Source: an uncultured Bacilli bacterium
GTDB taxonomy: Bacteria; Bacillota_I; Bacilli_A; RF39; UBA660
Length of the DNA: 64,000 nt
NCBI GenBank assembly: GCA_934096015.1
Contig: CAKOLD010000002.1
Coordinates: 393 to 64,392, forward strand
Reading direction: 5' to 3'
Positions 1,320 to 35,423 of this stretch are shown in pieces. The notes beneath the pieces are model-generated. The model saw only the letters and a list, made by a program, of their open reading frames with translations, did no database searches and was not told the origin of the DNA. How positions within the stretch are numbered: the stretch's first letter is position 1; every line of letters begins with the position of its first letter. Made by a program: the position numbers and the translations under genes.

Positions 1320-2543
1320 TTATCTGTATTTTTGATCGATAATTTTTTCAAAAGTATTTTCTATAAATTGTTTGGTTAGTCCTTTATTATATAAATAGTG
1401 GTTTTTTTCATAAGTTTCAGAATATTGATTTAAGGGAATTAATAGAAAATTATTTTGATTTTTGTCGTAGTAGTTTATAATTGGTTCTGTTTTAATATTA
1501 GTAATATTAATTGATTCATTTTGTTTGGTTATTGTTAGTGTTGATAATAATCCAATTTGATAGTTATCTAAAAATTCTTGATTGGCTCTATCTACAATTG
1601 GATCTGCAGAAACAAAATTTCCCATAGAATAATATACTAAAGTTTTGTGATTTTCACCGATTTCTTCTATTTTTTGAATATTATGTGAGTGAGATCCAAT
1701 AATAATATCTACACCTAAGTTGTTTAAATAGTTAGCAAGATAGGTTTGTTCTTCAGTTATTTGGTAAGTAAATTCTTTACCCCAGTGCATTAAAACGATG
1801 ACGACGTCAACGCTTTCTCTTAAATTAGTTATTTCATTTTTTAATATTTTTTTATATTCTTCTGTAACAGTTCTTGTGTCTGGATCTCTAAATAGTCCTA
1901 CTTTTTCTCTTAAGTTGTTGGGTATTTTACTATTTGTGCCCATGGTATATGCTAAAAATCCTATTTTTATTCCATTTATATTTTTAATATATAAATTGTT
2001 TCTTTTATTTGTGTCATTATAAGTTCCTACAGTCATAATATTAGAGTTATTTTTAAAGAAATCTATAGTTGAGTTTATTCCATCGATTCCTCTATCATAA
2101 GAATGGTTATTTGCAGTTCCTAAAATTTCTATACTTTGGTTTGCAATTAAATTTCCCATTGAACTTGGAGCACAAAAGGAATAACCAGTTCCTGATACTT
2201 CTAAAGAATCATTTCCGATAACTACTTCCATGTTTCCAATGGTTAAATCATCTTTTTTAAAATAATCATTGTTAACAATTTCAAAATATTTTGAAGAGTC
2301 ATATCCACTATTTATAGCATCATAAAAAGGTTGTTCAAATAATAAATCACCAATTAAAGTTAATTTAGCTTTTTGTTTATTTTGTTTAATTATTTTTTTA
2401 GTGGTGGAGGGTGTTTTTTGATTAGTATCTTTATCTTTTTTTTCTTCTTTAGTAATATTTTGAAATATGATTATACTTAATATGATAAGTATTAATAATA
2501 GTATTATTTTAAATTTCTTTTTTAATTTTAATTTTGTTTTCAT
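1320..2543 (-). CDS. CapA/PgsA-family metallophosphatase-like protein (membrane-anchored, Lys-rich N-terminus)
   Basis: motifs 'GTANNHSYD', 'VLMHWGKEF', 'IIGSHSH' typical of the CapA family; N-terminal TM. Confidence 0.7.
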   Translation of the reverse strand: MKTKLKLKKKFKIILLLILIILSIIIFQNITKEEKKDKDTNQKTPSTTKKIIKQNKQKAKLTLIGDLLFEQPFYDAINSGYDSSKYFEIVNNDYFKKDDLTIGNMEVVIGNDSLEVSGTGYSFCAPSSMGNLIANQSIEILGTANNHSYDRGIDGINSTIDFFKNNSNIMTVGTYNDTNKRNNLYIKNINGIKIGFLAYTMGTNSKIPNNLREKVGLFRDPDTRTVTEEYKKILKNEITNLRESVDVVIVLMHWGKEFTYQITEEQTYLANYLNNLGVDIIIGSHSHNIQKIEEIGENHKTLVYYSMGNFVSADPIVDRANQEFLDNYQIGLLSTLTITKQNESINITNIKTEPIINYYDKNQNNFLLIPLNQYSETYEKNHYLYNKGLTKQFIENTFEKIIDQKYR

Positions 2544-2646: not shown

Positions 2647-3168
2647 ATGAAAAAATTAAAAAATAATAAAAAAGGTTTTACGTTAGTAGAATTACTTGTA
2701 GTTATAGTTATTTTATCTGTAATTATTATTATATTAGGAAATACAGCATTACCTATGATGGGAAAATTGAAGAAAAATGGAATGTTAACTTATGCAGAGA
2801 GAGTTGTTTCTAATGCTGCTACTTCTATTCAAGCTGATTCAATTACAAATCCTACTATTGCTGGTAAAGGATATAGTATTGAAGATTTAATGGGGAGCAA
2901 GTCTTATTTTGGATGTGTGTATGTAAAAGTGGATAATACTACTGGAAGCCCAGTTTATACTTATACAGTACTTATGTATTCTAAGGCGGATAAATATCAA
3001 TTTAAAGGAGAAACAACAACTGCAACATTTGATGGTGACATTGATACTTTAGCACCAGGATATGGAGGAAGCATACCTGCAACTAATCTATATAATTCTA
3101 CTACATGTAATGTTGCTCCAACAGCTAGTAGCATCTATAAAGAAGCTGCACCAGCAGCAACACCATAA
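2647..3168 (+). CDS. prepilin-type N-terminal cleavage/methylation domain protein (type IV pilin / pseudopilin-like)
   Basis: N-terminus 'KKGFTLVELLVVIVILSVI' = class III signal (G/FTLVE) plus hydrophobic helix. Confidence 0.65.
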   Translation: MKKLKNNKKGFTLVELLVVIVILSVIIIILGNTALPMMGKLKKNGMLTYAERVVSNAATSIQADSITNPTIAGKGYSIEDLMGSKSYFGCVYVKVDNTTGSPVYTYTVLMYSKADKYQFKGETTTATFDGDIDTLAPGYGGSIPATNLYNSTTCNVAPTASSIYKEAAPAATP

Positions 3169-3226: not shown

Positions 3227-4267
3227 ATGATTGGTATAGCACTTGAAGGTGGAGGAGCAAAAGGAGCTTATGAAATAGGTGCTTATGTTGCTTTAAAAAA
3301 ACACTTAAAAAATATAAAAATGATTGCTGGGACTTCAATTGGTTCAATAAATGCGGCACTTTTAGTGCAAGGTGATATAAAAAAAGCAATGGATTTGTGG
3401 ATGAGTGTTGATTCTAGTATTTTTGGTTTTGATACAGAACTAAATAAAGAATTAAAAAAGAGTTTTAATTTAAAAAATATGAAAGCTGGATTAGAAGAAA
3501 TAAAAGCTGTTATAAAAAATAAAGGAATTGATACTAAAAAGTTACGTGATTTAATTGATGAAGCAATTGATGAAGATAGAGTCAGAAATAGTAAAATAAA
3601 ATTGGGTTTAGTTACAGTGCGTTTAAATGATTTAAAACCGTTAGAGGTTACGATAGATGATATACCTTATGGAAAATTAAAAGATTATTTAATGGCTAGT
3701 TGCTATTTACCGATTTTTAAGAGTGAAAAAATAATAGATAATAAATATTATATTGATGGGGGATTTTATAATAATTTGCCGGTTTCATTATTAGAAAAAA
3801 ATGGTTGTGATAAAATTTATGCAATTCGTTTAAATTCTTTAGGGATTGTAAAAAAATATACTGGTGATGTAGTGGTTATTAAGCCTAATAAAAGTACAGG
3901 CCCAGGAATTTTTTTCAGTAAAAATGATGTTACTAATAACATAAGAATGGGATATCTTGATGCGTTAAAATCATTAAATTTGGTGTTAGGGAAAACTTAT
4001 TATTTTAAAAAGAAAAAATTTTATTTTGTAAATGTGAAAAAAGTTTCTTCTAAGACACTTGATGTTATTAAATTAAAATTTAAAAGTGATGATTATAAGG
4101 AAATATTATTTTTAGCGTTAGAAGAAGTATTATTTTATAATAAATTTGATGTTTTAAAGTTATATGAGATTAATAAGACGTTGAAATTAATAAAAAAGGG
4201 TAAATTAAAGTGTAGAAGTAGTGTTATTAATGATTTTATTTATAGTGTTGATTGTAAAATAGGTTGA
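3227..4267 (+). CDS. patatin-like phospholipase
   Basis: 'GIALEGGGAKGAYEIG' (GxGxxG) and 'GTSIGS' (GxSxG) motifs, 'DGG' dyad region. Confidence 0.75.
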   Translation: MIGIALEGGGAKGAYEIGAYVALKKHLKNIKMIAGTSIGSINAALLVQGDIKKAMDLWMSVDSSIFGFDTELNKELKKSFNLKNMKAGLEEIKAVIKNKGIDTKKLRDLIDEAIDEDRVRNSKIKLGLVTVRLNDLKPLEVTIDDIPYGKLKDYLMASCYLPIFKSEKIIDNKYYIDGGFYNNLPVSLLEKNGCDKIYAIRLNSLGIVKKYTGDVVVIKPNKSTGPGIFFSKNDVTNNIRMGYLDALKSLNLVLGKTYYFKKKKFYFVNVKKVSSKTLDVIKLKFKSDDYKEILFLALEEVLFYNKFDVLKLYEINKTLKLIKKGKLKCRSSVINDFIYSVDCKIG

Positions 4268-5115: not shown

Positions 5116-5736
5116 ATGAAAGAGAACAGAGCAATGACGGTTATGATGACTGTAATTGGAATAGCAACTTTGCTAGTTACGTTAGTTAGTGCAACATTTG
5201 CTTACTTTACAGCTAAAGTTACTGATAATAATCCTTTAAAAAATGATGTAACAGTTACAGGTGCTACGTTAGGTACTATAAGTTATACACATGGTGATAC
5301 TGTTACTTTAGCTAATGCTTTTCCAGGAGATTCTGATTCTAAAACATTTACTATTTCTTCGGAAGCGGCTTCTACTAATCCAGTTAGCTATGATGTTTAT
5401 TTAGTTACATCTGATAATACTTTTACTACTGGTAATTTGCATGCTACTTTAACAGGAGATTCGTCTAATGTAACTGGTAAAACTGCTATTACTTCTAATT
5501 TGAATGATACTTCTTTGGATTTATCTAACTATGGCCCTAATTCTAAAGTTAAGATTGGTAGTGGAGTTATACAACCTAATGCTACTACTGATACTTGGAC
5601 ATTGAAAATTCAACTTGTTGAGGCAAATGAAGAGCAGAATGCAGATCAAGGTGCTACGTTTACAGGAAAAATTGAAGTGGTTGCAAATATAGGTTATACA
5701 GCTGGTGGTGCTACAACTAGTGTTAGTGGAAACTAA
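5116..5736 (+). CDS. TasA/camelysin (peptidase M73)-family secreted fibre protein, SipW-type signal
   Basis: N-terminal 'LLVTLVSATFAYFTAKVTDNN' resembles the TasA/CalY 'GGTFAFFSDKE' SipW-cognate signal; tandem paralog; sipW next. Confidence 0.6.
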   Translation: MKENRAMTVMMTVIGIATLLVTLVSATFAYFTAKVTDNNPLKNDVTVTGATLGTISYTHGDTVTLANAFPGDSDSKTFTISSEAASTNPVSYDVYLVTSDNTFTTGNLHATLTGDSSNVTGKTAITSNLNDTSLDLSNYGPNSKVKIGSGVIQPNATTDTWTLKIQLVEANEEQNADQGATFTGKIEVVANIGYTAGGATTSVSGN

Positions 5737-5753
5737 GGAGAGGGATAATAATT

Positions 5754-6383
5754 ATGAATGAAAATAATAAAGGAACTACTATTTTATTAACAGTTATTGG
5801 AGTTGCAACTTTATTAGTTGCGGTTGTTGGAGCAACATTTGCTTATTTTACTGCAAATGTTAAGGATGTTAATCCTGATAAAACAGATGTAAATGTTAGT
5901 GCAGCAACAGTTGGTACTATTACTTTTACGCATGGTGATACAATTACATTACAAAATGCTTATCCTGGTGATTTAGATAGTAAAACATTTACTATTGCTG
6001 CTGATGCAACTAGTACTATACCTGTTGAATATAATATTTATTTGACAGTAACAAATAATACTTTTATAACAAATAATTTAGAATATAAATTGTCAGCTAC
6101 AAGTGTTACAGGAACAAATGGAACTGCATCTACTGGCTTACCTACATTGGAAGGAAGCCAATATGTAGCTTTAGATAGTACTACTTATGGAAATGCTAAA
6201 AAAGTTTTAATTGGAACAGCGAAATTAGGAACTAAAGGTACTGTTGATACTTGGACAATGGAAGTAAGATTAAAAGAAACAAATGAGTTACAAAATGATG
6301 ACCAAGGTAAGGAATTTAGTGGAAAATTAAGCGTTGAAGCTGTTACTAAATATTCTGCTGGAGGAAATACATACGGTGGTTAA
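5754..6383 (+). CDS. TasA/camelysin-family secreted fibre protein (paralog)
   Basis: 'LLVAVVGATFAYFTANVKD' signal; same architecture as preceding gene. Confidence 0.6.
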   Translation: MNENNKGTTILLTVIGVATLLVAVVGATFAYFTANVKDVNPDKTDVNVSAATVGTITFTHGDTITLQNAYPGDLDSKTFTIAADATSTIPVEYNIYLTVTNNTFITNNLEYKLSATSVTGTNGTASTGLPTLEGSQYVALDSTTYGNAKKVLIGTAKLGTKGTVDTWTMEVRLKETNELQNDDQGKEFSGKLSVEAVTKYSAGGNTYGG

Positions 6384-8168: not shown

Positions 8169-8918
8169 ATGAAAAGAAAAATAATTTTTATATTGTATGT
8201 TATCATCTTTTTGTTGGTAGCATCAATAAATGTTATTAGTATAAAGAAATTTTTTGATAAAAAACAATTTAAAAAACTTGATGATATAGTTGCAAATAAT
8301 TATGTTGTAAATTTAGTAAGTTTTAATGAAGAAGAAGTTTCTGAGGTTGTAGAGTCTCAAACTGAAAATGTTAGTACAGAACAAGAAAATAATACTATTA
8401 TTCCTTCTACTCAAGTTAGTGAGCCTACTTTAGAAATACCTAAAGCAGCTATTGAAGAAAAAAAGGAAATTGTAGAAACTAATCCAATTATTGCGGAAGC
8501 TTTATATGATGGATTAACAGAACAGGAATTAATAGATAAGTTAAATAGAAGTTTGAAAAATGAAATAGCAGAAACAGGTATTGATTTTGTAAATTTTTAT
8601 AAAAATACTGGTTTAGATCCTTATTTAGCTGTTGCGATTGTATTACATGAAACTGGTTGTTCTTGGAATTGTAGTAATTTAGTAAAAGAGTGTTTTAATG
8701 TTGGAGGATTAAAGGGTGGTCCTAACTTTTATAGAGATACCCGTTACACTTGTTATAGTTCAAAAGATGAAGGTGTGAATGCATATTTGAATATTTTATA
8801 TAATAATTATTATTCTCAAGGGTTAACAACTCCTGAATTAATTAATCCAAAATATGCTACTGGGACAACTTGGGCGGGAAAAATAAATTATTATATTGAA
8901 AAGATAAAAAACAATTAA
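8169..8918 (+). CDS. membrane-anchored peptidoglycan hydrolase, glucosaminidase (FlgJ/LytD-like) domain
   Basis: C-terminal 'YLAVAIVLHETG...NVGGLKGG' glucosaminidase-like block; N-terminal TM; acidic linker. Confidence 0.55.
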   Translation: MKRKIIFILYVIIFLLVASINVISIKKFFDKKQFKKLDDIVANNYVVNLVSFNEEEVSEVVESQTENVSTEQENNTIIPSTQVSEPTLEIPKAAIEEKKEIVETNPIIAEALYDGLTEQELIDKLNRSLKNEIAETGIDFVNFYKNTGLDPYLAVAIVLHETGCSWNCSNLVKECFNVGGLKGGPNFYRDTRYTCYSSKDEGVNAYLNILYNNYYSQGLTTPELINPKYATGTTWAGKINYYIEKIKNN

Positions 8919-11191: not shown

Positions 11192-12910
11192 ATGGGAGAA
11201 AATGGATACTTGTTTTTGGGAATTATCTATTTTATTATTGCGACTATTTTAATTACGCTTACTTTGGTATTGATAAATAAACATAATAAGAAAAAATATA
11301 ATGAAGCTTTAAGAGTTCTAGAAAGAGATAAGAATTTAATTATATCAGCTTCAATATTAAGTGAACTTAATAAAGTTGAATCTTTAGTTAATAATAAAGA
11401 ATTAGAAAATGTTTATAATAATTGGAAAATTAAATTTAAACAGATTAAAGATAAAGAAGTTCCTAAGATTACTGATGAATTAATAGAAGTTGAAGAATTA
11501 TTTAAGACTAAAAAATATAAGCTTATTGAAGAAAAATTAGCAAAAATAGAACTTGATATATATTATGTTAAAAGTAAGGCTCAATTTTTATTAGGAGAAA
11601 TAAAAGAGATTACTTTGAGTGAATCTAAAAATAGAGAAATTGTAACCAAGTTAAAAACTAGTTATCGTAATATTTTTTTGAAATATAATAATCATAAGGA
11701 AGATTATTATTTAATTAATAGTCCTATTGAATTACAATTTGAGAATGTTGATAAATTATTTTCGACATTTGAAGTTGCTATGGATAATAATAAATATAGT
11801 GAAGTTGGAAAAATTGTTAAAGCTTTGGATGATATTATAGGAAATTTGGGAATAGTAGTAGATGAAGCTCCGAGTATAATTTTAATGGGTAAAAATATTA
11901 TACCTAAAAAAATTGAAGATATTAAATCAATATATGAAAGAATGGTTAAAGAAAATTACAATTTAGATTATTTGAATATTGATTATAATATAGAGGAATC
12001 AGAAAAGAAAATAGCTGATATATTTGATAGATTAAATGTATTAAATTTGGAAGATTCTATTTTTGAATTAAAAACTATTATGGATTATTTTGATGGTCTT
12101 TATAATGATTTTGAAAAAGAAAAAGTAAGTAAGAAAATGTTTTTAGAATATATGAGGGTTATTGGAATTAAAAGTAAAAAAATTAATTCTGTAATCGGAA
12201 GTATTAGTAGAAAAATAGATGAAATAAAATATAGTTATGATTTAAGTGATGATGAAATAGTTATTATTGATGAACTTAATTTGGAGAGTAAGAGTATTCA
12301 AAGTGATTATGAAATGATTGTTGAGAATTATCGTAATAAATCATTTGCATATACAAAACTTGATAAAGAAATGGAACTTTTAAATTTAAGAATTTCTAAG
12401 ATTGAAGATAAATTAAATTTTACATTAAAAAGTTTAGGTAGTTTAAAAGAAGATGAATTAAGAGCTCGTGAACAGTTAGAAGAAATAAAAGATATTTTAA
12501 ATAAATCAAAGAAAAAAATTAATAGTTTTAAATTGCCAGTTATTCCTAAGTGTTATTATATTGAGTTAGAAGAAGCTACTGAGGCAATAAGGGAAATGAT
12601 AAAGGAATTGGAACAACAACCAATATCAATTAAGACTTTGAATACGAGAGTTGATACGGCTAGAGATTTAGTTTTAAAATTATTTAATACAACTAATGAA
12701 ACTGTAAAGACAGCGTGGATGGCTGAAAATGCAATTGTTTATGGAAACAGATACAGAGCTAGTAATAAAGATATTAATGCTGGTTTAGAAAGAGCTGAAG
12801 TAGCTTTTATGAAGGGAAATTTTAAACTTAGTTTAGAAAATTCAATAAATGCGATTAATATAATTGAACCTGGTATTCATAAAAAACTTTTAAGCGCATA
12901 TGAAAAATAA
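11192..12910 (+). CDS. ezrA: septation ring formation regulator EzrA
   Basis: single N-terminal TM, ~570 aa of coiled coil, C-terminal 'YGNRYRASN' patch (EzrA QNR patch); start moved to ATG with RBS aggaga. Confidence 0.7.
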   Translation: MGENGYLFLGIIYFIIATILITLTLVLINKHNKKKYNEALRVLERDKNLIISASILSELNKVESLVNNKELENVYNNWKIKFKQIKDKEVPKITDELIEVEELFKTKKYKLIEEKLAKIELDIYYVKSKAQFLLGEIKEITLSESKNREIVTKLKTSYRNIFLKYNNHKEDYYLINSPIELQFENVDKLFSTFEVAMDNNKYSEVGKIVKALDDIIGNLGIVVDEAPSIILMGKNIIPKKIEDIKSIYERMVKENYNLDYLNIDYNIEESEKKIADIFDRLNVLNLEDSIFELKTIMDYFDGLYNDFEKEKVSKKMFLEYMRVIGIKSKKINSVIGSISRKIDEIKYSYDLSDDEIVIIDELNLESKSIQSDYEMIVENYRNKSFAYTKLDKEMELLNLRISKIEDKLNFTLKSLGSLKEDELRAREQLEEIKDILNKSKKKINSFKLPVIPKCYYIELEEATEAIREMIKELEQQPISIKTLNTRVDTARDLVLKLFNTTNETVKTAWMAENAIVYGNRYRASNKDINAGLERAEVAFMKGNFKLSLENSINAINIIEPGIHKKLLSAYEK

Positions 12911-14148: not shown

Positions 14149-17100
14149 ATGAAGAATTTTAAAGAGCTTGATAAGAGAGCAGTTCATGAAGTTGAAAGTA
14201 CTATATTGAAAGAATGGAAAAAACAGGATATTTTAAATAAAACGATTTTAAATAGAAATAATTCTAAAAATTGGGTTTTTTACGATGGACCAGCAACTGC
14301 AAATGGAAATCCTGGTTTACACCATATGGTTGCTAAGTTTTTGAAAGATACTTTTTGTAAGTATCAAACTATGAAAGGAAATAAAGTTTTAAGAAAAATA
14401 GGTTGGGATACTCATGGATTACCAGTTGAAGTTCAAGTTGAAAAACAATTAGGTTTTTCAGGTAAAACTGATATTGAAAAATATGGTATCGAAAAATTTA
14501 ATGAAAAGTGTCGTCAAAGTGTTTGGGAAAATGAAAATGCTTTTAAAAGATTGACTGATGAAATGGGTCAATTTATTGATATGGATAATAAGTATATTAC
14601 TTATGATAATAATTATATTGAAACGGAATGGTATATTTTAAAGAAGTTTTTTGATGAAGGATTATTTTATGAGGGTGTAAAGATTCTTCCTTGGTGTCCA
14701 AGATGTGGAACTGGTTTAGCTAGTCATGAGGTTGCTCAAGGATATAAAGAAATTACTGCAAATACTGTAATAGTTCCTTTTAAACTTAAAGGTAAAGATG
14801 AGTATTTTTTAGTGTGGACAACAACTCCTTGGACTTTAATAAGTAATGTTGCTTTATGTGTTAATCCAGAAGAAAATTATGTTAAGGTAGATTCTAAAGG
14901 ATACAAGTTTATTTTAGCTGAAAAACTTGCAAGTAGTGTTTTGAATGATGAATATACAGTTTTAGAAACTTTTAAGGGTAAAGATTTAGAATATGTAGAG
15001 TATGAACAATTAATACCTAGCTTAGAAGTTAATGGTAAAGCTTTCTTTGTTACTGTAGATGATTATGTTACGATGACTGATGGAACTGGTATCGTACATA
15101 TTGCACCAGCTTTTGGAGAAGATGATGCTAATGTTGGTAAAAAATATAAATTGCCATATGTTAATCCTGTTAATGAAGATGCAACTTATAAAGAAGGATT
15201 ATGGAAGGGAATGAATATTTTTGATGCTGACTTAGAAGTTATTAAGTGGCTAAAAGCAAATGATAAATTGTTTAAAAAACAAAAAATGGTACATGATTAT
15301 CCACATTGTTGGAGATGTGATTCACCTTTAGTTTATTATTCAAGACCATCTTTCTATTTGGAAGTAACTAAATTAAAAGATGCTATAATTGCTGAAAATA
15401 AAAAAGTAAATTGGTATCCAAGTTTTGTTGGAGAAAAACGTTTTGGTAATTGGTTAGAAAATATGAATGACTGGGCAATATCAAGAAGTAGATATTGGGG
15501 AACTCCACTTCCTTTATGGCGTTGTAGCTGTGGTCATATGGAAATGATTGGTTCTAGAAAAGAACTAGTAGAAAAGGCTATTGAAAAGATAGATGAAACG
15601 ATTGATTTACATAGACCATATGTTGATGATGTACATATTACTTGTCCAGATTGTGGAAAAACAATGGATAGAGTTAAAGATGTAATTGATTGTTGGTTTG
15701 ACTCAGGAAGTATGCCATTTAGTCAATATCATTATCCTTTTGAAAATAAAGAATTATGGGAAAGTCAATATCCTGCTGACTTTATTGCAGAAGGTATAGA
15801 TCAAACAAGAGGTTGGTTTTATTCTTTATTAGTTATTGGTGTTTTTATGACGGGACATAGTCCTTACAAAAATGTTTTGGTTAATGAATTATTATTAGAT
15901 AAATTTGGTAAGAAAATGCATAAATCAAAAGGTAATGCAATTGAACCATTTACTTTAATGGAAAAATTTGGAGCAGATACAATAAGGTGGTATTTTCCTT
16001 ATGTTTCTCCGACATGGACTCCTTTAAAATTTGATGAAGATGGTTTGAAAGAAGTACATTCTAAATTCTTTAATCCATTTAAGAATACTTATTCCTTTTT
16101 CCAAATGTACGCTAATACTGATTTAATTGATATAGATAATTGTGATGTGAAACTAGAGGATAGAGAAGAAATTGATAAGTGGTTAATTAGTAAATATAAT
16201 AAATTATTAAAAGTTTGTACTGAAGGATATGATAAATATGATTTGAATCAAGTTGTTAAAGAAGTAACTGCTTTTGTTTCAGAGGATTTATCAAATTGGT
16301 ACATTAGAAGAAATAGAAATAGATTTTGGAGTAGTGAGTTAGATAATAGTAAAAAGAGTGTTTATAAAACTACTTATGAAGTTTTAGTAGGTTTATGTGA
16401 GTTATGTGCTCCAATTATACCATTTACGACTGAAGAAATTTATAAAGATCTAACTGGTTTAGAATCTGTTCATTTAGCTGATTTTCCACAGTGTGATGAA
16501 ACTAAAATTAATCAAGAAATTGAAACGAAAATGGATTTAGTTAGGGATTTAATTTCTACAGGTCGTTATGTAAGAGAAGAAGCTAAAATTAAAGTTCGTC
16601 AACCTATTAGTGAATGTTTGATCGATGGAAAATATAAAGACATTTTAGGAGATTTGGTTAATTTAATTAATGAAGAATTAAATGTTAAACAAGTGATTTT
16701 TGTAAATGATTTAGCAGAATATATGAATTTTACAATTAAACCTAATTTTAAAGTTTGTGGAGCAATGTTTGGATCTAAGATGAAGTTATATCAACAAACT
16801 TTATCTGATTTAAATGACGATGATATAGATTTATTGCTTAAAGAAGAAACAATTACAGTTGATTTTGATGGAGAAAGATTAGATATAACTCCTAATATGG
16901 TTGACATTAGAATTGAAGCTAAAGAAGGATTTAATGTGGGAATGGAAAATAATAAATTTATTATATTAAATACTGACTTAAGTAGAGATTTATTGCTTGA
17001 AGGATTGGCTCGTGAAATTGTTTCTAAGGTACAAAATTTACGTAAAGAAAATAATTTTAATATTATTGATAGAATTGAATTAGAATATTCTTCTGATGAT

Positions 17101-17250
17101 GAAGTTAAAGAAGCTATTAATGAATTTAAAGATTATATTATGAATGAAACTTTAGCTGTTGTTATTAAAGAAAATAGTAATTTAGAAAAAGCAAATTTAA
17201 TTGATATTAATGGTCATGATGTAAAAATAAAAATTGAAGTAACAAAATAA
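14149..17250 (+). CDS. ileS: isoleucyl-tRNA synthetase, long (type-2/eukaryote-like) form
   Basis: 'FYDGPATANGNPGLHH' class-I signature, 'KMHKSKGN' KMSKS, 1033 aa, T-box upstream. Confidence 0.95.
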   Translation: MKNFKELDKRAVHEVESTILKEWKKQDILNKTILNRNNSKNWVFYDGPATANGNPGLHHMVAKFLKDTFCKYQTMKGNKVLRKIGWDTHGLPVEVQVEKQLGFSGKTDIEKYGIEKFNEKCRQSVWENENAFKRLTDEMGQFIDMDNKYITYDNNYIETEWYILKKFFDEGLFYEGVKILPWCPRCGTGLASHEVAQGYKEITANTVIVPFKLKGKDEYFLVWTTTPWTLISNVALCVNPEENYVKVDSKGYKFILAEKLASSVLNDEYTVLETFKGKDLEYVEYEQLIPSLEVNGKAFFVTVDDYVTMTDGTGIVHIAPAFGEDDANVGKKYKLPYVNPVNEDATYKEGLWKGMNIFDADLEVIKWLKANDKLFKKQKMVHDYPHCWRCDSPLVYYSRPSFYLEVTKLKDAIIAENKKVNWYPSFVGEKRFGNWLENMNDWAISRSRYWGTPLPLWRCSCGHMEMIGSRKELVEKAIEKIDETIDLHRPYVDDVHITCPDCGKTMDRVKDVIDCWFDSGSMPFSQYHYPFENKELWESQYPADFIAEGIDQTRGWFYSLLVIGVFMTGHSPYKNVLVNELLLDKFGKKMHKSKGNAIEPFTLMEKFGADTIRWYFPYVSPTWTPLKFDEDGLKEVHSKFFNPFKNTYSFFQMYANTDLIDIDNCDVKLEDREEIDKWLISKYNKLLKVCTEGYDKYDLNQVVKEVTAFVSEDLSNWYIRRNRNRFWSSELDNSKKSVYKTTYEVLVGLCELCAPIIPFTTEEIYKDLTGLESVHLADFPQCDETKINQEIETKMDLVRDLISTGRYVREEAKIKVRQPISECLIDGKYKDILGDLVNLINEELNVKQVIFVNDLAEYMNFTIKPNFKVCGAMFGSKMKLYQQTLSDLNDDDIDLLLKEETITVDFDGERLDITPNMVDIRIEAKEGFNVGMENNKFIILNTDLSRDLLLEGLAREIVSKVQNLRKENNFNIIDRIELEYSSDDEVKEAINEFKDYIMNETLAVVIKENSNLEKANLIDINGHDVKIKIEVTK

Positions 17251-17269
17251 TGTTACTTTAATTTTTTTT
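17239..17269 (+). terminator. rho-independent terminator overlapping ileS stop
   Basis: stem gtaaca/tgttac then T-rich run. Confidence 0.55.
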
Positions 17270-17294
17270 ATGGTAAAATTTAAAAGGAGGATGT

Positions 17295-17960
17295 ATGAAA
17301 AAAGGTAAAATAATTGTTTTAGAAGGTGCAACTGATGGTATGGGTAAAAGTACCCAATTACAAGAACTTAAAAATCATTTTAAAGAGGATAGTGTTTCAA
17401 TTTATACGCATCATTTTCCTAGTTATGATAGTGTTCAAGGAAATTTAGTTACAGAATATTTAAAAGGGAATTTAGGAAAGTTAGAAGAATTAAATCCTTA
17501 TTTAATTAATACTTTTTATGCGGTTGATAGGGCAGTAACTTGGAATAAGGAATTAAAGAGCGAATTTAATAAGGGAAAGGTATTATTACTTGATAGATAT
17601 ACTACTAGTAGTTTAATATATCAATCTGCTTTTATTACGAATTTAGAAGAGAAGAAAAAGTTTTTAGATTATGTTGCTACTTATGAATATGAAAAATTAG
17701 GTATACCTAAACCAGATAAAGTCATATTTTTGTATGGAGATTTTGATGTTATTAATGAGTTACGTATGTCTAGGGTGGATAATGAAGGTGTTAAAAATGA
17801 TATTCATGAATCTAACCTTGAATTTTTGAAGAAAGTTTATGACAGTGCTTTATTTGTTGCAGATTATTTTAAATGGGACAAGATTAATTGTACTTCTAAT
17901 GGAAAAATGAGAACTATTAAAGAGATTAGTGAAGAAATATACGAAATAGCAAAAAAATAG
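17295..17960 (+). CDS. thymidylate (dTMP) kinase-family protein
   Basis: P-loop 'IVLEGATDGMGKSTQ', 'LLLDRYTTSSLIYQ' (DRY motif). Confidence 0.55.
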   Translation: MKKGKIIVLEGATDGMGKSTQLQELKNHFKEDSVSIYTHHFPSYDSVQGNLVTEYLKGNLGKLEELNPYLINTFYAVDRAVTWNKELKSEFNKGKVLLLDRYTTSSLIYQSAFITNLEEKKKFLDYVATYEYEKLGIPKPDKVIFLYGDFDVINELRMSRVDNEGVKNDIHESNLEFLKKVYDSALFVADYFKWDKINCTSNGKMRTIKEISEEIYEIAKK

Positions 17961-17990
17961 TGTTACAAATTGTAACACTTTTTAAAATTT
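17951..17990. terminator. bidirectional terminator between tmk-like (+) and lexA (-)
   Basis: perfect palindrome tgttacaa|ttgtaaca flanked by A-run and T-run. Confidence 0.7.
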
Positions 17991-18602
17991 TCTATATAAA
18001 CCAATGGCTTTTCCTAAGATTGTGCAGTTATCTAAAATTATTGGATTCATGGTATCATTTTCAGGTTGTAATCTAATATGATCTTTTTCTTTATAAAAAG
18101 TTTTTAAGGTAACTTCATTGTCAAATGTCAATGCAACTACAATATCACCATTTCTAGCTGTATTTTGTTTTTGAACAATTACATAATCTCCATCATATAT
18201 ACCAACGTTTATCATAGAATCTCCACAACATTTTAAAGTAAAAATGGTTTCTTTTGCTGGAACTAATGATGCAGGAAGTGAAAAAAATTCGTTTGGTTGT
18301 TCAATAGCTTCGATTGGGCTACCACATGAGATATTTCCTAATAATGGAGTTTTTACTAATTCTTCTTCTTTTTTTTCATATTCATTTTCTACCAATATTT
18401 CGATGGTTCTAAATTTTGAGTTTTCTTTTCTAATTATTCCTTTGTTTTCTAATTGTTTTAAGTGTGTGTGAACAGTTGCTGGACTAGATAAATTCATTCC
18501 TTTGCATATTTCTCTAACACTAGGTGGATATCCATGAGATACTACAAACTTTTTAATATAATTTAATACTTCTTCTTGTTTTTTAGTTAGTTTCTCGTTC
18601 AT
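17982..18602 (-). CDS. lexA: SOS repressor LexA
   Basis: N-terminal wHTH 'SVREICKGMNLSSPATVHTHLKQLE', C-terminal S24 'GDSMINVGI...K' Ser/Lys dyad. Confidence 0.9.
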   Translation of the reverse strand: MNEKLTKKQEEVLNYIKKFVVSHGYPPSVREICKGMNLSSPATVHTHLKQLENKGIIRKENSKFRTIEILVENEYEKKEEELVKTPLLGNISCGSPIEAIEQPNEFFSLPASLVPAKETIFTLKCCGDSMINVGIYDGDYVIVQKQNTARNGDIVVALTFDNEVTLKTFYKEKDHIRLQPENDTMNPIILDNCTILGKAIGLYRKF

Positions 18603-18645
18603 ATTTACCTCCTAAATTTATGTTAACACTTTCAATGTAAAAAGT

Positions 18646-18689
18646 CAAACATTTGTTTATATTTTAAATTGACACGAACAATTGTTTAT
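18646..18689. promoter_or_regulatory. two Cheo-type LexA operators in lexA / small-ORF divergent promoter region
   Basis: 'CAAACATTTGTTTA' and 'CGAACAATTGTTTA' resemble Firmicutes CGAAC-N4-GTTCG; TTGACA at 18669-18674. Confidence 0.55.
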
Positions 18690-18721
18690 GTTAACCTTAA
18701 ATTGTAGTAAGGAGTGATTGA

Positions 18722-18823
18722 ATGAAAAAGTATATTGAAAATTATAAAGGGGTTATTTTATTGTATCTTTTTGTTGTCTTATCTACTATGTTGTTAATTT
18801 ATAGGTATGCATCTTTGGCTTAA
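18722..18823 (+). CDS. 33-aa hydrophobic peptide ORF divergent from lexA (candidate SOS-induced membrane peptide)
   Basis: strong RBS AAGGAGTGA 6 nt upstream of ATG; MKKYIENYKGVILLYLFVVLSTMLLIYRYASLA; not in the ORF track (too short). Confidence 0.35.
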   Translation: MKKYIENYKGVILLYLFVVLSTMLLIYRYASLA

Positions 18824-18872
18824 TTTACTTGAATTAATTTTAATAATCTTTTATACTTATGTAGTGATATTT

Positions 18873-19997
18873 ATGAAAAAATTATTAATTACTTATGCCA
18901 GTTATGGAAGTGGTCATAAAGCTGTTGGAATGTATATAAAAGATTATTTTGAAGCAAGAGGCTATAAAGTTATGACTATTGATTTACTTAATTATGCTAT
19001 TCCAGTTATTGGGTCTTTTACTAAAGTTGCAAATGAATTTTTAATGACTAAAATTCCTAGTATGTGGAGTTTACTTTATTTTGCTTTTGATAATCGTTTG
19101 ACATGTCCGATATATCAAAAAACATCTTTAAAAATGTTTGATAATAAAAAATTAAGAAAAGAGATTGTTGATTTTAATCCTGATTTGGTAATTGCAACTC
19201 ATTTTTACGGTAGTAGTTTGATTGCTAAATATAAAAAGAATAATATTATAAATCCCAAACTAATTACGGTGGTCACTGATTATAAAGCTCATGAGATATG
19301 GTTAAAAGAAGTAAAAAATACTGATGCTATTATAGTTAGTGGAGTAGATGAAAAAAGAAAACTTATGAAGTATGGATATACTTTTAAACAAATTTATACT
19401 AGTGGTATTCCTATACTGCCTGTTTATGATTTAAATATAGGTCGAGAAAAATTAATAAAAAAATTTAAAATTAATAAAAATTATCCTACTGTTTTATTTT
19501 TTTGTGGTGGCGGGAATGGAGCTTTAAATAATTTAAAATATTTAAAGGTTATTTTGAAATCGGAAAATAAATTTAATTTACTTGTCATAGCTGGTAAAAA
19601 TAAAAAAGCCAAAGAAAAATCTTTGGATTATGTAAAAAAATATAATAAGAAAAATGCTAAAGTTTTTGGATTTGTTACTAATATTGCTGAATTTTACATG
19701 GTTAGTGATCTTGTAATAACTAAGCCAGGTGGAGCACAAGTTACTGAATGTTTATATTTTAAAAAACCAATGATGCTTATCAAATCTAATGGTGGGCAAG
19801 AAATAGAAAATAGATTATTTTTGATAAAAAAGGGATATGCTGTTGCTTCTTGGTCTATTTATGGATTTTTAAAGAAATTTGATAGAATGATTAGTGATAA
19901 TAGATTTTTAAGTAAGATTTCTTTAAAAATATCTAAAATTAATCAAGAAAAATCTATGGATAAATTATTTAATACAAGTGAAAAATTATTGAAATAA
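18873..19997 (+). CDS. ugtP: UgtP/MGDG-synthase-family (GT28) diacylglycerol glycosyltransferase
   Basis: 'LITYASYGSGHKAVG' N-terminus, C-terminal 'TKPGGAQVTEC' GT-B donor-binding block; start could also be 18807. Confidence 0.65.
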   Translation: MKKLLITYASYGSGHKAVGMYIKDYFEARGYKVMTIDLLNYAIPVIGSFTKVANEFLMTKIPSMWSLLYFAFDNRLTCPIYQKTSLKMFDNKKLRKEIVDFNPDLVIATHFYGSSLIAKYKKNNIINPKLITVVTDYKAHEIWLKEVKNTDAIIVSGVDEKRKLMKYGYTFKQIYTSGIPILPVYDLNIGREKLIKKFKINKNYPTVLFFCGGGNGALNNLKYLKVILKSENKFNLLVIAGKNKKAKEKSLDYVKKYNKKNAKVFGFVTNIAEFYMVSDLVITKPGGAQVTECLYFKKPMMLIKSNGGQEIENRLFLIKKGYAVASWSIYGFLKKFDRMISDNRFLSKISLKISKINQEKSMDKLFNTSEKLLK

Positions 19998-20042
19998 TAT
20001 TCATTAAATTATATAATATTTTGGCATTAAGGAAGTGTTGTT

Positions 20043-21446
20043 ATGAATTTACCAAATATGAAAGACGCTAAGGTTAGAAATAAGAGTGTTGTTCAATATA
20101 TAGATCAGGAAAATGTGATAAATAAAGATTTATATTGTAATAAAAAGTATTATATTAAAACATATGGATGTCAGATGAATGTTCATGATTCAGAAGAGAT
20201 AAAAGCTATGTTAGATAATTTAGGATTTGTTGAAACTGATGTTTTTGAAGATTCTGATTTAATAATATTAAATACTTGTGCAATAAGAGAAAATGCTCAT
20301 GATAAGGTTTTTGGTTTTTTAGGAAGATGTAAACATCTAAAAAAAGAAAAAAGTGATTTAATTATTGCTTTATGTGGATGTATGGCTCAAGAAGAAAATG
20401 TTGTAGATGAAATCAAGAAAAAACATCCTTATATTGATATAGTGTTTGGGACTCATAATATTAATGAACTTCCTAATTTACTGATGTGCAGTAATAATAA
20501 ACTTAATATAGAAGTCTTTAGTAAAGAAGGAAATGTTTTTGAAAATGTTTTATACCATAGAGATTCTAAAATAACAGCGTGGGTTAATATAATGTTTGGA
20601 TGTGATAAGTTTTGTACTTATTGTATAGTTCCTTATACTAGAGGGAAACAAAGAAGCAGAAAAAGTGCTGCCATTCTTAAAGAAGTTGTTAATTTAAGAG
20701 AACAGGGATATAAAGAAGTTACATTGCTTGGTCAAAATGTAAATGCTTACGGAAAAGATTTGGATGATGAGATTGATTTTGCAACTTTATTGAAAAAGGT
20801 TAGTGAAACAGGAATTGAACGAATTCGTTTTGTCACTAGTCATCCTTGGGATTTTAGCGATGAAATGATAGAAGTTATTTCCGAGTGTGATAATGTTATG
20901 CCTTATATTCATTTGCCATTACAAAGTGGTTCTGATAAAATTTTAAAATTGATGGGTAGACGTTATACTAAAGATGATTATCTAAAATTGGTAGATAAAA
21001 TTAAAAGTAAAATACCTAATGCATCTATTACAACTGATATTATTGTTGGTTTTCCTAATGAGACTGAGGAAGATTTTGAAGATACTTTGGAAGTTGTAAA
21101 TAAAGTTAAATATGATGGTGCTTTTACTTTTATTTACTCGCCTAGAGAAAACACTCCAGCTAGTAAAATGCCAGATTCTATTTCTTTAGAAACAAAAGAG
21201 AAAAGATTGCAGAGATTAAATGAAGTTGTAAATAAATATTCATTAATGAATAATAAAAAATTAGAGGAAAAAATAGTTAAAGTTTTATTACTTGGAGAAA
21301 GTGAAAAAGATCACAATAAGTTGTATGGCTATACTGATACGATGAAACTTGTAAATGTTGAAGGAAATAAAAAGTTAATTGGTAGTATAGTAGATGTAAA
21401 AATTCTTACAGCAAAAAGTTTTAGTTTGGATGGAATAGTTCTTTAA
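20043..21446 (+). CDS. miaB: tRNA-i6A37 methylthiotransferase MiaB
   Basis: UPF0004 'YIKTYGCQMNVHDSE', radical-SAM 'FGCDKFCTYC', C-terminal TRAM. Confidence 0.8.
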   Translation: MNLPNMKDAKVRNKSVVQYIDQENVINKDLYCNKKYYIKTYGCQMNVHDSEEIKAMLDNLGFVETDVFEDSDLIILNTCAIRENAHDKVFGFLGRCKHLKKEKSDLIIALCGCMAQEENVVDEIKKKHPYIDIVFGTHNINELPNLLMCSNNKLNIEVFSKEGNVFENVLYHRDSKITAWVNIMFGCDKFCTYCIVPYTRGKQRSRKSAAILKEVVNLREQGYKEVTLLGQNVNAYGKDLDDEIDFATLLKKVSETGIERIRFVTSHPWDFSDEMIEVISECDNVMPYIHLPLQSGSDKILKLMGRRYTKDDYLKLVDKIKSKIPNASITTDIIVGFPNETEEDFEDTLEVVNKVKYDGAFTFIYSPRENTPASKMPDSISLETKEKRLQRLNEVVNKYSLMNNKKLEEKIVKVLLLGESEKDHNKLYGYTDTMKLVNVEGNKKLIGSIVDVKILTAKSFSLDGIVL

Positions 21447-32887: not shown

Positions 32888-32909
32888 AATATAAATAGAG
32901 GTGAGTAAA

Positions 32910-35423
32910 ATGAAAAAATTTTTACATTATTTTTTAGCATTTTTAATTCCTATATTAATTTTTTGTTTAGCAATGTATTTTATGAATTTGTATCCTTTTG
33001 GAGATCAATCCTTTAGAATAAAAGATGCTTTTAGTCAATATCCTGCTTTTTTTGAAGGTTTAAGACAAGGAAATTTCTTTACTTTTAAAATAGGTTTAGG
33101 CACTAATTTTTATCCAATATTTACAACCTATTTAGCTAATCCTCTTAATTTAGTGTATTTTTTATTTAAAAATTATCAATTTGAAATATTTTTCTTTCTT
33201 TTAATAATTTTTAAAATTGGATTAATAGGACTTAGTATGAATATATTATTGAATTATAAAAATGGATATAATAAATGGTCACTATTATTTTCTACAATAT
33301 ATTCTTTATGTGGATTTGTTTCACTTTATTATTTTAATTATCAATTTTTAGATGCATTATATATGTTACCATTAATTATGATAGGAATAGATAAAATAGT
33401 AAGTAATGATAAAAATTTAATGTATTTTATTACTCTTACTTTAATGATAATATTTCATTATTATACAGCTTATATGATATGTGTTTTTTTGGTAATTTAT
33501 TTTTTCTTTTTATTATATAATAAGGATTTTAATAAAAAGACTAAATTAAAAAAGATAAAAAAATTTTTTATTACAAGTTTATTTTGTGGTTTATGTTCTT
33601 CTTTTATAACTATTCCTACTTTTTACAGTTTATTGCAGGGAAGAACTTCATATTACGAAGGCTTAAAATATTTTGCTATTAATAAAAATGGAGGATCTTT
33701 CTTTTATAATTTAACTTCTTCTAGTACTTTTGTTACAGATTTAATAGGTACATGTGCACCAGTTTTTATTACTTTACTTGTTATAGTTTTAATTATTTTT
33801 ACTTTCTTTAGAAAAGATATCAATAAAAAATATAAGGCTTCTTTATTGATAATAATTTTATTATATTTTCTTTCTTTAAGTTTTAATTTATTTTATGATG
33901 CTTGGCATGTATTTCAGGAGCCAGTAGGATTACCTGGAAGGTTTGTTTTTACTTTTAATGCTTTTTTAGTTTTAATTTCTTATAATACTTTTTTAAATAT
34001 TCCTAAAATTAAAATTAAAAATAAAATTATTATTTATATAGTTACAATTGTTACAATATTATTATCATTTTTATATAAATTATATTTAATTAATTTTAAA
34101 GAATTAGATAATATTTATTATTATATGATAATATTCAATTTATTATCTTTATTTTGCTATATATTTTTTATGGATAAGAAAAAAGGCAAATATTTAATTA
34201 TATTTTTAGTATTATGTGAATTATTATGTAATCAAATATTTTCTTTTAATGTTTCATTTGCTTATGCTAAATATGATGATCGTACAGTTAATTTAAAAAA
34301 GGAAAAAGATATTGCTGAATTTTATGATAATTTAAAAAATAATAACTATCTAAGAATGGAAACGTATGATAGTTATAACAGTGGTATGTTTTATAATTAT
34401 AATTCTGTTAGTTATTACGTTTCAATTTATAATAATAATTTAAGTTTATTTGTAAATAAAAGTAATAAAAATAGTGAAAATAGTGAAAATTATATGCACA
34501 TAATTTCCTACAAATCCAATTTTTTATTTGATTCGTTTTTTGGCATTGGAAATACTGTTTATTTTAAATCAGATGATATGTGTTATGAAAAACATAATGG
34601 TGTAGTTATTAAAAGCTTAGGATTTTTAGTGAATAGTGATGATCTATATAATGATTTAAATAATTCTATTGATGATATTGTAAAATTGTATAATGATTTT
34701 ACAAAAAATAAGTATAATTTAAAATTGAAGGAATTAACACCAAGTATAGTATATGATAATGTTAAATTAAATGATGGTATTTTTTCTTTAATTAACGATA
34801 ATTACGATGGGAAAGTAAGGTTTAAATATATATTTGATGAAGATATGTATATTAATCTTGATTTATTAGAAGGACAGTATTTTACTTATTTGAAATCTGG
34901 AGTTGAATATGATACCGAAGATACCATCAATGTAATTTATAATAATAAAAAGGTTAATAGTGTGAATAAGGTAAGAAAAGGAGATAAGTTAGAAATCATT
35001 TTAACTATTCCAAGAGATTTAAAATCAGTTCTAAATAATTTTAAAAATATTACTGGTGTAAATAAACAAGTTTTTACTAATGTAATTAATGATTTAAATG
35101 AGAATGTTATTGAAGATATTACATTTAATTCTTTTGGGTTTACGGGGGATTTACAATCAACTTCTGATAAAAATTATGCAGTATTAACAATTCCTTATGA
35201 TGAAAATATTTTAATAAAAGTGGATGGAGAAAAAGTTAATTATAATAAAATATTAGGTGGGATAATAGGTTTTAAAATACCTGAGGGCCGCCATAAAATA
35301 GATTTTGAATATCACATAAAAGGCTTAAAAATGGGAATAATAATATCAAGTATTAGTTTAGTAGTGTTTTTGTTTACAAAAATTCTTGAAAAAAAAAATA
35401 ATACTAGGTATAATAATAGGTGA
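32910..35423 (+). CDS. YfhO-family GT-C membrane glycosyltransferase
   Basis: N-terminal 'MNLYPFGDQSFRIKDAFSQYPAFF' YfhO hallmark, ~13 TM in first 450 aa, large extracytoplasmic C-domain, final TM. Confidence 0.7.
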   Translation: MKKFLHYFLAFLIPILIFCLAMYFMNLYPFGDQSFRIKDAFSQYPAFFEGLRQGNFFTFKIGLGTNFYPIFTTYLANPLNLVYFLFKNYQFEIFFFLLIIFKIGLIGLSMNILLNYKNGYNKWSLLFSTIYSLCGFVSLYYFNYQFLDALYMLPLIMIGIDKIVSNDKNLMYFITLTLMIIFHYYTAYMICVFLVIYFFFLLYNKDFNKKTKLKKIKKFFITSLFCGLCSSFITIPTFYSLLQGRTSYYEGLKYFAINKNGGSFFYNLTSSSTFVTDLIGTCAPVFITLLVIVLIIFTFFRKDINKKYKASLLIIILLYFLSLSFNLFYDAWHVFQEPVGLPGRFVFTFNAFLVLISYNTFLNIPKIKIKNKIIIYIVTIVTILLSFLYKLYLINFKELDNIYYYMIIFNLLSLFCYIFFMDKKKGKYLIIFLVLCELLCNQIFSFNVSFAYAKYDDRTVNLKKEKDIAEFYDNLKNNNYLRMETYDSYNSGMFYNYNSVSYYVSIYNNNLSLFVNKSNKNSENSENYMHIISYKSNFLFDSFFGIGNTVYFKSDDMCYEKHNGVVIKSLGFLVNSDDLYNDLNNSIDDIVKLYNDFTKNKYNLKLKELTPSIVYDNVKLNDGIFSLINDNYDGKVRFKYIFDEDMYINLDLLEGQYFTYLKSGVEYDTEDTINVIYNNKKVNSVNKVRKGDKLEIILTIPRDLKSVLNNFKNITGVNKQVFTNVINDLNENVIEDITFNSFGFTGDLQSTSDKNYAVLTIPYDENILIKVDGEKVNYNKILGGIIGFKIPEGRHKIDFEYHIKGLKMGIIISSISLVVFLFTKILEKKNNTRYNNR

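Follow-up and report, generated by a model that had tools for sequence, protein, structure and literature searches.

The 64,000-nucleotide stretch analyzed here (hereafter the window), from contig CAKOLD010000002.1 of an uncultured Bacilli bacterium, carries a 33-codon open reading frame (ORF) back to back with lexA. With a probability of roughly 55%, this ORF encodes an SOS inhibitor of cell division, that is, a LexA-repressed bitopic membrane peptide that would be the functional counterpart of YneA and SosA. LexA binding and induction by DNA damage are strongly suggested by the conserved geometry of the locus; division inhibition is suggested, with moderate confidence, by position, regulation, architecture, and a parallel in phages. 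Gram-positive SOS division inhibitors have been found lineage by lineage, as unrelated small membrane proteins (YneA, SosA, ChiZ, and DivS), and the mechanism by which they halt the septal synthase is just now emerging. The kind of system is well known; what is new, as far as the profile comparisons go, is an unnamed family that has no sequence kinship to the described inhibitors and that is shared with phages. Since the gene is conserved back to back with lexA and has a LexA site in its promoter, it is most likely a damage-induced division brake.

In public databases, the nearest relatives are gut “Bacilli” or “Tenericutes” that are uncultured and known as metagenome-assembled genomes (MAGs), with LexA identities of 63 to 83%; a metagenome scan with LexA found no relative above 81% identity. 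For comparison, we used 80 species-representative loci with a related LexA (L numbers below denote loci compared, these included). A seed profile of nine peptides was searched against six-frame segments of these loci and of the window and gave exactly one match in the window and in each of 74 loci, with E values from 1e-6 to 1e-23 against a background that starts at E 0.075. The window ORF scored 53.7 bits (E 8.8e-15). All 74 matches are divergent from lexA at a distance of about 120 nt, and all are preceded by a Shine–Dalgarno (SD) sequence of the AGAAAGAAGGAG type; the start codon is ATG in 73 and GTG in one. Of the six loci lacking a match, five still hold a small one-helix ORF in the same slot, and the sixth, L074, ends at a contig edge. 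Over the first 33 codons, the median pairwise ratio of nonsynonymous to synonymous divergence (dN/dS) was 0.38 in frame; for the two shifted frames, it was 0.79 and 1.87. Changes are fewest at codon position 2.

A word-indexed database search returned 135 proteins, every one unnamed or “hypothetical” and devoid of Pfam domains. An exhaustive HMMER search of 1.84 billion representatives yielded 260 cluster representatives at E ≤ 1e-3, all 33 to 83 aa long, unnamed, and lacking a Pfam domain. A look-up of the exact 33-aa product found no gene call on record, and no family in Pfam, NCBIfam, or PHROGs covers the peptide. Genes of 33 codons escape annotation, and this one is a practical example. 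A preliminary description, made from the letters of the window, had pointed to an ORF with a strong ribosome-binding site and a single transmembrane (TM) helix. Both features are borne out, by AAGGAG 7 nt ahead of the ATG and by the one-helix AlphaFold2 model, and conservation at the lexA loci of relatives, which that description had named as a check, is found in 74 of the 80 species genomes. On these comparative grounds, the 33-codon ORF is a real gene under selection, predicted to encode a single TM helix.

The spacer between lexA and the small gene, 119 nt in the window, contains two Cheo-like operators (Table 1). Both had been recognized before, each with an end placed one base too high (18660 and 18689 rather than 18659 and 18688). 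The second had been described as overlapping the TTGACA −35 element; in fact, it abuts this hexamer and fills the promoter spacer, whose 17 nt consist of box 2 plus TGT. For scoring, we built a symmetrized 16-mer matrix from the relatives alone, excluding the window; its consensus, TCGAACAATTGTTCGA, is of the classical Cheo type. When the 64-kb window was scanned with this matrix, box 2 ranked first (18.9 bits; 18674–18689) and box 1 second (17.7 bits; 18645–18660), and the third-best site scored 9.0 bits. The pattern CRAACN4GTTY occurs four times in the window versus 1.1 expected, and two of the four sit 29 nt apart in the spacer.

These pattern counts are modest evidence, and it is the comparison of loci that is decisive against chance. 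The block GTCAAACAAATGTTY is almost invariant beside the lexA promoter in 71 loci and, as box 1, is still discernible at lexA loci of only ~48% LexA identity. The lexA promoter pattern TTAACAT...GTCAA is likewise kept in 71 loci. On the other side of the spacer, alignment of the small-gene promoter from 74 loci gives TTGACA-[CGAACAAATGTTTnTG]-TAnnnT, with box 2 at the equivalent place in the promoter spacer of ~70 relatives. Relative L028, for example, has the same lexA promoter layout (11/12 match to consensus) and a small-gene promoter reading TTGACA-17-TAAGAT with TG (10/12). Boxes, promoters, SD, and ORF are kept together in 74 of 80 related species-level genomes. SOS control of the small gene by LexA is strongly supported by this operator and promoter geometry; the preliminary description had proposed such control, and a LexA box lies in the promoter spacer of essentially every relative. 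The spacer is enlarged in L003 (~3475–4000, on a contig shared with L081), where it measures 527 nt against the usual ~120 and holds, besides an insert of ~400 nt that is richer in GC, an extra copy of box 1; an Rfam search of this enlarged spacer gave no match.

Table 1. Features of the lexA–small gene locus, homologs at other loci, and envelope-related genes of the window
Feature	Position	Strand	Evidence or remark
LexA box 1, CAAACATTTGTTTA	18646..18659	.	overlaps lexA −35 (TTGACT)
LexA box 2, CGAACAATTGTTTA	18675..18688	.	inside spacer of small-gene promoter
Small-gene promoter: TTGACA 18669-18674, 17-nt spacer, TG 18689-18690, −10 TAACCT 18692-18697	18669..18697	+	direct reading
Small-gene SD AAGGAG, 7 nt ahead of ATG	18709..18714	+	
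Small gene, 33 aa, MKKYIENYKGVILLYLFVVLSTMLLIYRYASLA	18722..18823	+	profile E 8.8e-15
lexA, 206 aa	17982..18602	-	Pfam LexA_DNA_bind E 1.3e-23, Peptidase_S24 E 1.9e-31
lexA SD, AGGAGGT on minus strand	18607..18613	-	seen in sequence; CCTCC kept at this place in relatives
lexA promoter: TTGACT 18648-18643, 17-nt spacer, TG-extended TAACAT 18625-18620	18620..18648	-	promoter scan
Terminator-like hairpin after lexA	17979-17959	-	
Promoter-like site of downstream glycosyltransferase, TTGAAT-17-TATACT	18829..18857	+	promoter scan
MGDG-synthase/UgtP-like glycosyltransferase, neighbor outside the unit	18873..19997	+	Pfam MGDG_synth E 3.2e-20, Glyco_tran_28_C
Phage/prophage homologs of the peptide	L144 2501-2683; L146 282-449; L147 12-170; L148 3998-4156; L149 1932-2072; L150 4001-4141		
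YneA-like slot genes	L097 985-1326; L098 906-1364; L102 906-1331; L105 908-1294; L106 917-1303	-	
EzrA	window 11192-12910	+	E 1.6e-97
Glucosaminidase-domain protein	window 8169-8918	+	
YfhO	window 32901-35423	+	
PGA_cap (CapA-like) protein	window 1320-2543	-	

The family consensus is MKK.L..YGG.ILFY.VII.GVLLLNARF.YLN, followed by a variable tail that is rich in N, E, and Q and commonly terminates in (I/V)A(M/I)(N/G)x; the conserved core is MKK..YGG.ILFY.VII.GVLLLNARF.YLN. Most members are 44 to 52 aa long (MKKKLMDMGGLILFYSVIVIGVLLLNFRFSHLNNKNNENINNTYIAMNK is an example of a 49-aa relative). The 33-aa window form is a tail-less variant of this longer family, whose usual length is 45 to 50 aa, with the conserved core intact and the variable tail missing, which, like the existence of phage homologs, goes beyond the preliminary description; its statement that the peptide is shorter than any described SosA holds (33 versus 77 aa). 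The window peptide is predicted to consist of a cytoplasmic MKKYIENYK (+2), a TM helix at about residues 10 to 27, and six outside residues, RYASLA. It keeps Y15, L25, and R28, and of the YLN of the motif only L32 remains. AlphaFold2 predicts one helix over residues 2 to 32 (predicted local distance difference test score [pLDDT] 88.7). Over 249 members, the mean net charge is +2.0 in the N-terminal flank versus +0.27 beyond the helix, a bias that predicts an N-in, C-out orientation.

The metagenome scan with LexA also supplied lexA loci at ~48% LexA identity (GC 31–48%), in which the divergent slot is taken by a YneA-like gene encoding a TM helix and a LysM domain; Pfam recognizes LysM with E 1e-8 to 1e-10 in the slot genes of L097, L098, L103, and L106. 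The box layout of these distant loci matches that of the window: the lexA promoter has a box, and a second lies in the promoter spacer of the slot gene. Besides the box in this spacer, a Cheo box lies just ahead of the SD. Since TM–LysM genes sit in the equivalent slot of distant lexA loci, the small ORF can be said to occupy the yneA slot. YneA of Bacillus subtilis and Listeria has ~105 aa. The small gene resembles yneA in being divergent from lexA, in having a Cheo box in its promoter (box 2, ~70 relatives), and in encoding an N-terminal single TM helix with the C terminus outside, a topology that for the window peptide is predicted by AlphaFold2 and the charge bias. It differs in that the window peptide and four longer relatives have no LysM domain according to Pfam, and in that the family is mostly 33 to 50 aa long. 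In some relatives, a transketolase gene comes next, an order that we take to resemble that around B. subtilis yneA. One distant locus (L100, 91–246) holds a 51-aa YneA-like remnant, helix only, whose N-terminal region resembles other YneA-like genes; this suggests that LysM loss happened there too.

YneA is localized through its TM helix, which binds TM7 of FtsW, and predictions point to this FtsW helix as the binding site of SosA, ChiZ, and SidA as well (PMC13396833). SosA of Staphylococcus (77 aa) is encoded next to lexA, in S. aureus for example, and has a TM helix at about residues 10 to 30; a highly conserved membrane-proximal segment is essential, and the far C terminus is variable and serves turnover by CtpA (PMC6851548). 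The present family has in common with SosA the place beside lexA with an operator, the N-terminal TM helix, the lack of LysM, a conserved motif just outside the membrane, and a variable far C terminus. It differs in the motif itself, N.RF.YLN, and in that the window copy has 6 extracellular residues versus ~47 in SosA. No other NCBIfam model matches more than two members of the family; the equivalog model for SosA (NF041581, cut-off 60 bits) matches 5 of 44, with a best E of 0.034 and scores that lie far below the cut-off and stem from the hydrophobic helix only. Judged in this way, SosA resembles the family in plan and not in sequence.

SidA of Caulobacter has ~29 aa and is essentially just a helix; it is alphaproteobacterial and goes with a different LexA box. 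The likeness is to a small integral membrane peptide that is DNA damage–induced, LexA-regulated, and FtsW-binding, where for the present peptide induction is predicted from the operators. The size of SidA would show that a bare TM peptide can suffice as an SOS division inhibitor, and the small size of the window peptide would then have a precedent within this class.

Homologs of the peptide are also found in phages. A scan of IMG/VR with a sub-alignment gave five viral contigs with a homolog, and the distant member P0235 lies in a prophage-like region with, in this order, an integrase, a helix-turn-helix (HTH) repressor, a divergent HTH gene, a 100-aa gene, the small peptide, and a DnaD-like replication gene. 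Two other distant members, P0173 and P0216, are again divergent from lexA. A profile made only from lexA-linked members scores the phage copies at 36 to 51 bits versus 9.9 for the best background. The phage copies have a longer, basic N terminus (KLRLKE.VK), they have no match among PHROG families, and no LexA box was found near them. Neighboring genes were identified with PHROGs on two viral contigs: in L148, they encode a transcriptional repressor, an Erf-like annealing protein, an exonuclease, a single-stranded DNA-binding protein (SSB), and a replisome organizer; in L150, a DnaB-like helicase, an M23 endolysin, and the large terminase subunit. The phage copies lie after a cro-like regulator and before replication genes, or among these upstream of lysis or terminase genes. 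Judged by such neighborhoods, the family has two homes, the SOS regulon of the host and lytic-direction early operons of phages. We rejected a holin function, given the single helix and the location of the phage copies in early or replication regions away from the endolysin; L150 is a loose exception, and there a separate 104-aa membrane protein precedes the endolysin.

Early phage proteins that act on host division are known. The membrane-bound early protein gp56 of phage SP01 stops host division via FtsL/DivIC and PBP2B/FtsW recruitment (bioRxiv 10.1101/2020.02.06.938217). Taken with this precedent, the early-operon position of the homologs provides a parallel to division inhibition, as gp56 and lambda Kil are also small early phage proteins that halt host division. 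There is no sequence relationship to either, and a difference is that here a host SOS gene and a phage gene belong to one family. We know of no such kinship for gp56 or Kil.

We propose the following mechanism. A LexA dimer on box 1 would cover the lexA −35 element and thereby autoregulate lexA, and a second dimer on box 2, between the −35 and the extended −10 elements, would keep the small gene off by occluding RNA polymerase. Upon DNA damage, RecA-stimulated self-cleavage of LexA would free both divergent promoters, and a transcript with a predicted leader of only ~18 nt and an exposed, strong SD would be translated. The peptide, with its three lysines, one helix, and a juxtamembrane motif of the N-x-R-F-x-Y-L-N type, would insert N-in as a bitopic protein. 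Helix and motif would then engage a late component of the divisome, for which the septal peptidoglycan synthase formed by FtsW and a class B penicillin-binding protein (bPBP) is the most plausible candidate, and septation would pause. Phages of the same hosts would use their early-operon homologs for the same purpose.

A wider generalization is tentative, and we would sooner bet against it than for it: that a bare TM helix with a juxtamembrane motif of ~6 residues is a sufficient and portable inhibitor of the septal complex of a SEDS (shape, elongation, division, and sporulation) protein and a bPBP, used by hosts under LexA and by temperate or lytic phages in early operons alike. If true, this would be, to our knowledge, the first homology between an SOS checkpoint effector of a host and a host-takeover factor of a phage, and the peptide would be a natural, minimal ligand of FtsW. 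The LysM domain is required in YneA and an extracellular stretch in SosA, which raises the question of what the minimal inhibitory element is. The locus adds an unnamed family, with 260 cluster representatives, from uncultured, genome-reduced gut Bacilli, in which the effector would be a helix plus a short motif, and its presence in phage early operons ties a host checkpoint to phage takeover. The peptide is short enough to synthesize, and if it does bind FtsW, it would offer a compact natural starting point for inhibitors of SEDS proteins.

As to a target in the host, the EzrA, glucosaminidase-domain, YfhO, and PGA_cap proteins encoded in the window (Table 1) indicate an FtsZ-type divisome and a peptidoglycan envelope. 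The M23 peptidoglycan endolysin of related phages is a further sign of a host cell wall. In the literature, most RF39 and parts of RFN20 and ML615J-28 are predicted to have thin peptidoglycan walls, and two families of RFN20 are predicted to have no such wall (PMC10868615).

A number of points weigh against a division inhibitor. The window copy extends only 6 residues past the membrane, and the activity of SosA needs ~15 to 25 extracellular residues (PMC6851548) and that of YneA its LysM domain (PMC13396833). The preliminary description had placed the peptide with YneA/SosA-type inhibitors; this is upheld for the slot, which is that of YneA-like genes and of sosA, and fails for family membership. 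No LysM is present, hhalign gave a probability of 0.2% and one aligned column between the family alignment and a YneA-like alignment, and the window peptide scores 12.2 bits (E 0.15) against the 60-bit cut-off of the SosA model, with only model positions 2 to 26, the hydrophobic helix, matched. In the regulatory region, the right half of box 2 reads GTTTA instead of GTTCG, and the −10 element of the small gene (TAACCT) is weak, fitting the consensus at 3/6 positions, and weaker than in the relatives; because of this poor fit, the promoter was absent from the promoter-scan list. FtsW and PBP genes do not lie in the 64-kb window, and MAGs are all that is available of the organism, an uncultured bacterium of the gut. 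Finally, membrane integrity could just as well be what a small hydrophobic SOS peptide acts on.

This last idea corresponds to an SOS-induced membrane toxin, similar in effect to TisB, that would lower the proton-motive force or ATP and lead to growth arrest or persistence instead of a specific block of division. TisB, of the TisB/IstR-1 pair of Escherichia coli, is a LexA-controlled type I toxin, a hydrophobic peptide of ~30 aa. The peptide studied here is likewise very small, hydrophobic, and LexA-controlled, the window copy barely extends beyond the membrane, and phages also carry small membrane-active proteins. Yet the hallmarks of a type I system are absent: the ~18-nt leader is neither long nor structured and leaves the strong SD exposed, the small-gene mRNA folds into less structure than shuffled sequences (z +1.55), and an Rfam search of positions 17000 to 20500 gave no match at E ≤ 1. 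No antitoxin RNA is apparent at the locus, with no conserved antisense promoter and no evident antisense partner. Unlike mobile multicopy toxins, the gene occurs once per locus and at a fixed chromosomal position beside lexA in 74 species of a Gram-positive lineage. Moreover, the helix has no charged or polar lining, and the most conserved part of the peptide is the juxtamembrane motif outside the membrane (N26, R28, and L32), which suggests a specific protein contact. We consider a membrane toxin unlikely, and the TisB-like option of the preliminary description finds no support here.

A different membrane role would make the peptide a modulator of the UgtP-like glycosyltransferase or of envelope lipids, an anchor for a MazG-like partner, or a phage-derived exclusion factor. 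The gene 3′ of the small ORF varies by locus: it is a MazG-like gene of ~100 codons in 34 loci, a glycosyltransferase gene in ~27 (as in the window), miaB in 5, and a transketolase gene in ~7. The UgtP-like gene follows with no intervening terminator, the MazG-like gene is translationally coupled, and homologs of the peptide occur in phages, all of which would fit such a role. Against it, the downstream gene changes while the linkage to lexA is constant, the glycosyltransferase is served by a conserved promoter of its own, and the phage copies adjoin neither glycosyltransferase nor MazG-like genes. For an exclusion factor, moreover, one would look to a lysogen-expressed region, where exclusion genes usually lie, and not to the lytic-direction early operon in which the phage copies are found. 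Gene order across the loci indicates that the small gene is linked to lexA and not to the downstream gene, and we hold a role of this other kind to be improbable. A leader peptide or upstream ORF of the downstream gene was also considered and was rejected, as the downstream gene varies.

The preliminary description had raised, as an objection to its own reading, the possibility that ugtP starts at 18807, in which case its mRNA would cover the small frame. The N termini of the glycosyltransferase homologs all read MKK(K/L)(I/L)L..Y(A)(R/T/S)YGSGHK, and the extension from 18807 is not conserved; this shared N terminus places the window ugtP start at 18873, not 18807, and the gene has its own conserved promoter, so that the objection falls. 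In relatives with the glycosyltransferase (gaps of L023–L067, ~50 nt), a conserved TTGTTT-17-TATAAT and an SD lie ahead of it. A conserved block, ATTCATTGTTTTATTTT, precedes the glycosyltransferase promoter in these gaps between the small gene and the glycosyltransferase gene. The promoter/terminator scan and mRNA folding revealed no terminator between the small gene and the promoter at 18829–18857, so some SOS read-through into ugtP is possible.

The MazG-like gene is absent from the window. It is found in 34 relatives (among L008–L049 and L066–L075; e.g., L024 3750–3388, minus strand), with a gap of −8 to +14 nt to the small gene. Pfam recognizes no domain in its product; searched with a profile, PDB sequences gave YpjD of B. 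subtilis (2gta, E 0.003) together with further pyrophosphohydrolases of the MazG type. Foldseek with a mediocre model (pLDDT 68) gave DCTPP1, YpjD, and iMazG as top hits at E ~0.07, and one member is named “NTP pyrophosphatase” in a JGI record. It is probably a LexA-controlled house-cleaning nucleoside triphosphate (NTP) pyrophosphatase that is cotranscribed with the peptide.

It could also be that the family is functional and that the 33-aa window copy is truncated, with its tail lost, and weakened or inactive, which would be compatible with the other readings. Most members are longer (44–52 aa) and have the tail, the −10 element of the window is weaker than those of relatives, and SosA is inactivated by C-terminal truncation of 30 to 40 residues; SosA lacking the last 10 residues, on the other hand, is more active (PMC6851548). 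In the three closest relatives of the window, L001, L002, and L003 (34 aa), the frame ends at the same point as in the window, just past the R...L motif. Synonymous divergence within this short-form clade is saturated (dS 1.5–1.9; dN 0.49–0.60), and the short form is stable within the clade despite that saturation. Other short members are L073 (35 aa), P0227 (33 aa), P0186 (34 aa), and P0221 (35 aa), and all short forms retain the entire core through the R...L motif. With SD, ATG, promoter, and operator intact in the window as well, we consider a weakened or inactive copy unlikely. The weakest alternative, a chance ORF without a product in AT-rich DNA, with the boxes serving lexA autoregulation only, can draw on the 27% GC of the window, the frequency of short ORFs, and the unrecorded exact product, but it is already refuted by the comparative data. 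By an estimate from the window composition, the chance that a random frame of 33 codons is free of stops is ~0.05; here, the frame, together with its SD and start codon, is uninterrupted in 74 of 80 species, amino acids are conserved, constraint is frame-specific, and longer homologs are called by gene callers in hundreds of assemblies.

Some further features of the window lie apart from the lexA locus. By eye from the ORF list, the product of 2647–3168 (+) has a type IV pilin- or pseudopilin-like N terminus, KKGFTLVELLVVIVILS, and 5116–5736 and 5754–6383 (+) are tandem paralogs of ~207 aa in which FAYFTA comes after a hydrophobic N-terminal segment. A long series of ORFs for large membrane or secreted proteins, all on one strand and several of them 600 to 730 aa, occupies ~27784–50879 (+) and includes a 935-aa protein with cadherin-like domains; this series may be a conjugative or surface-structure island.

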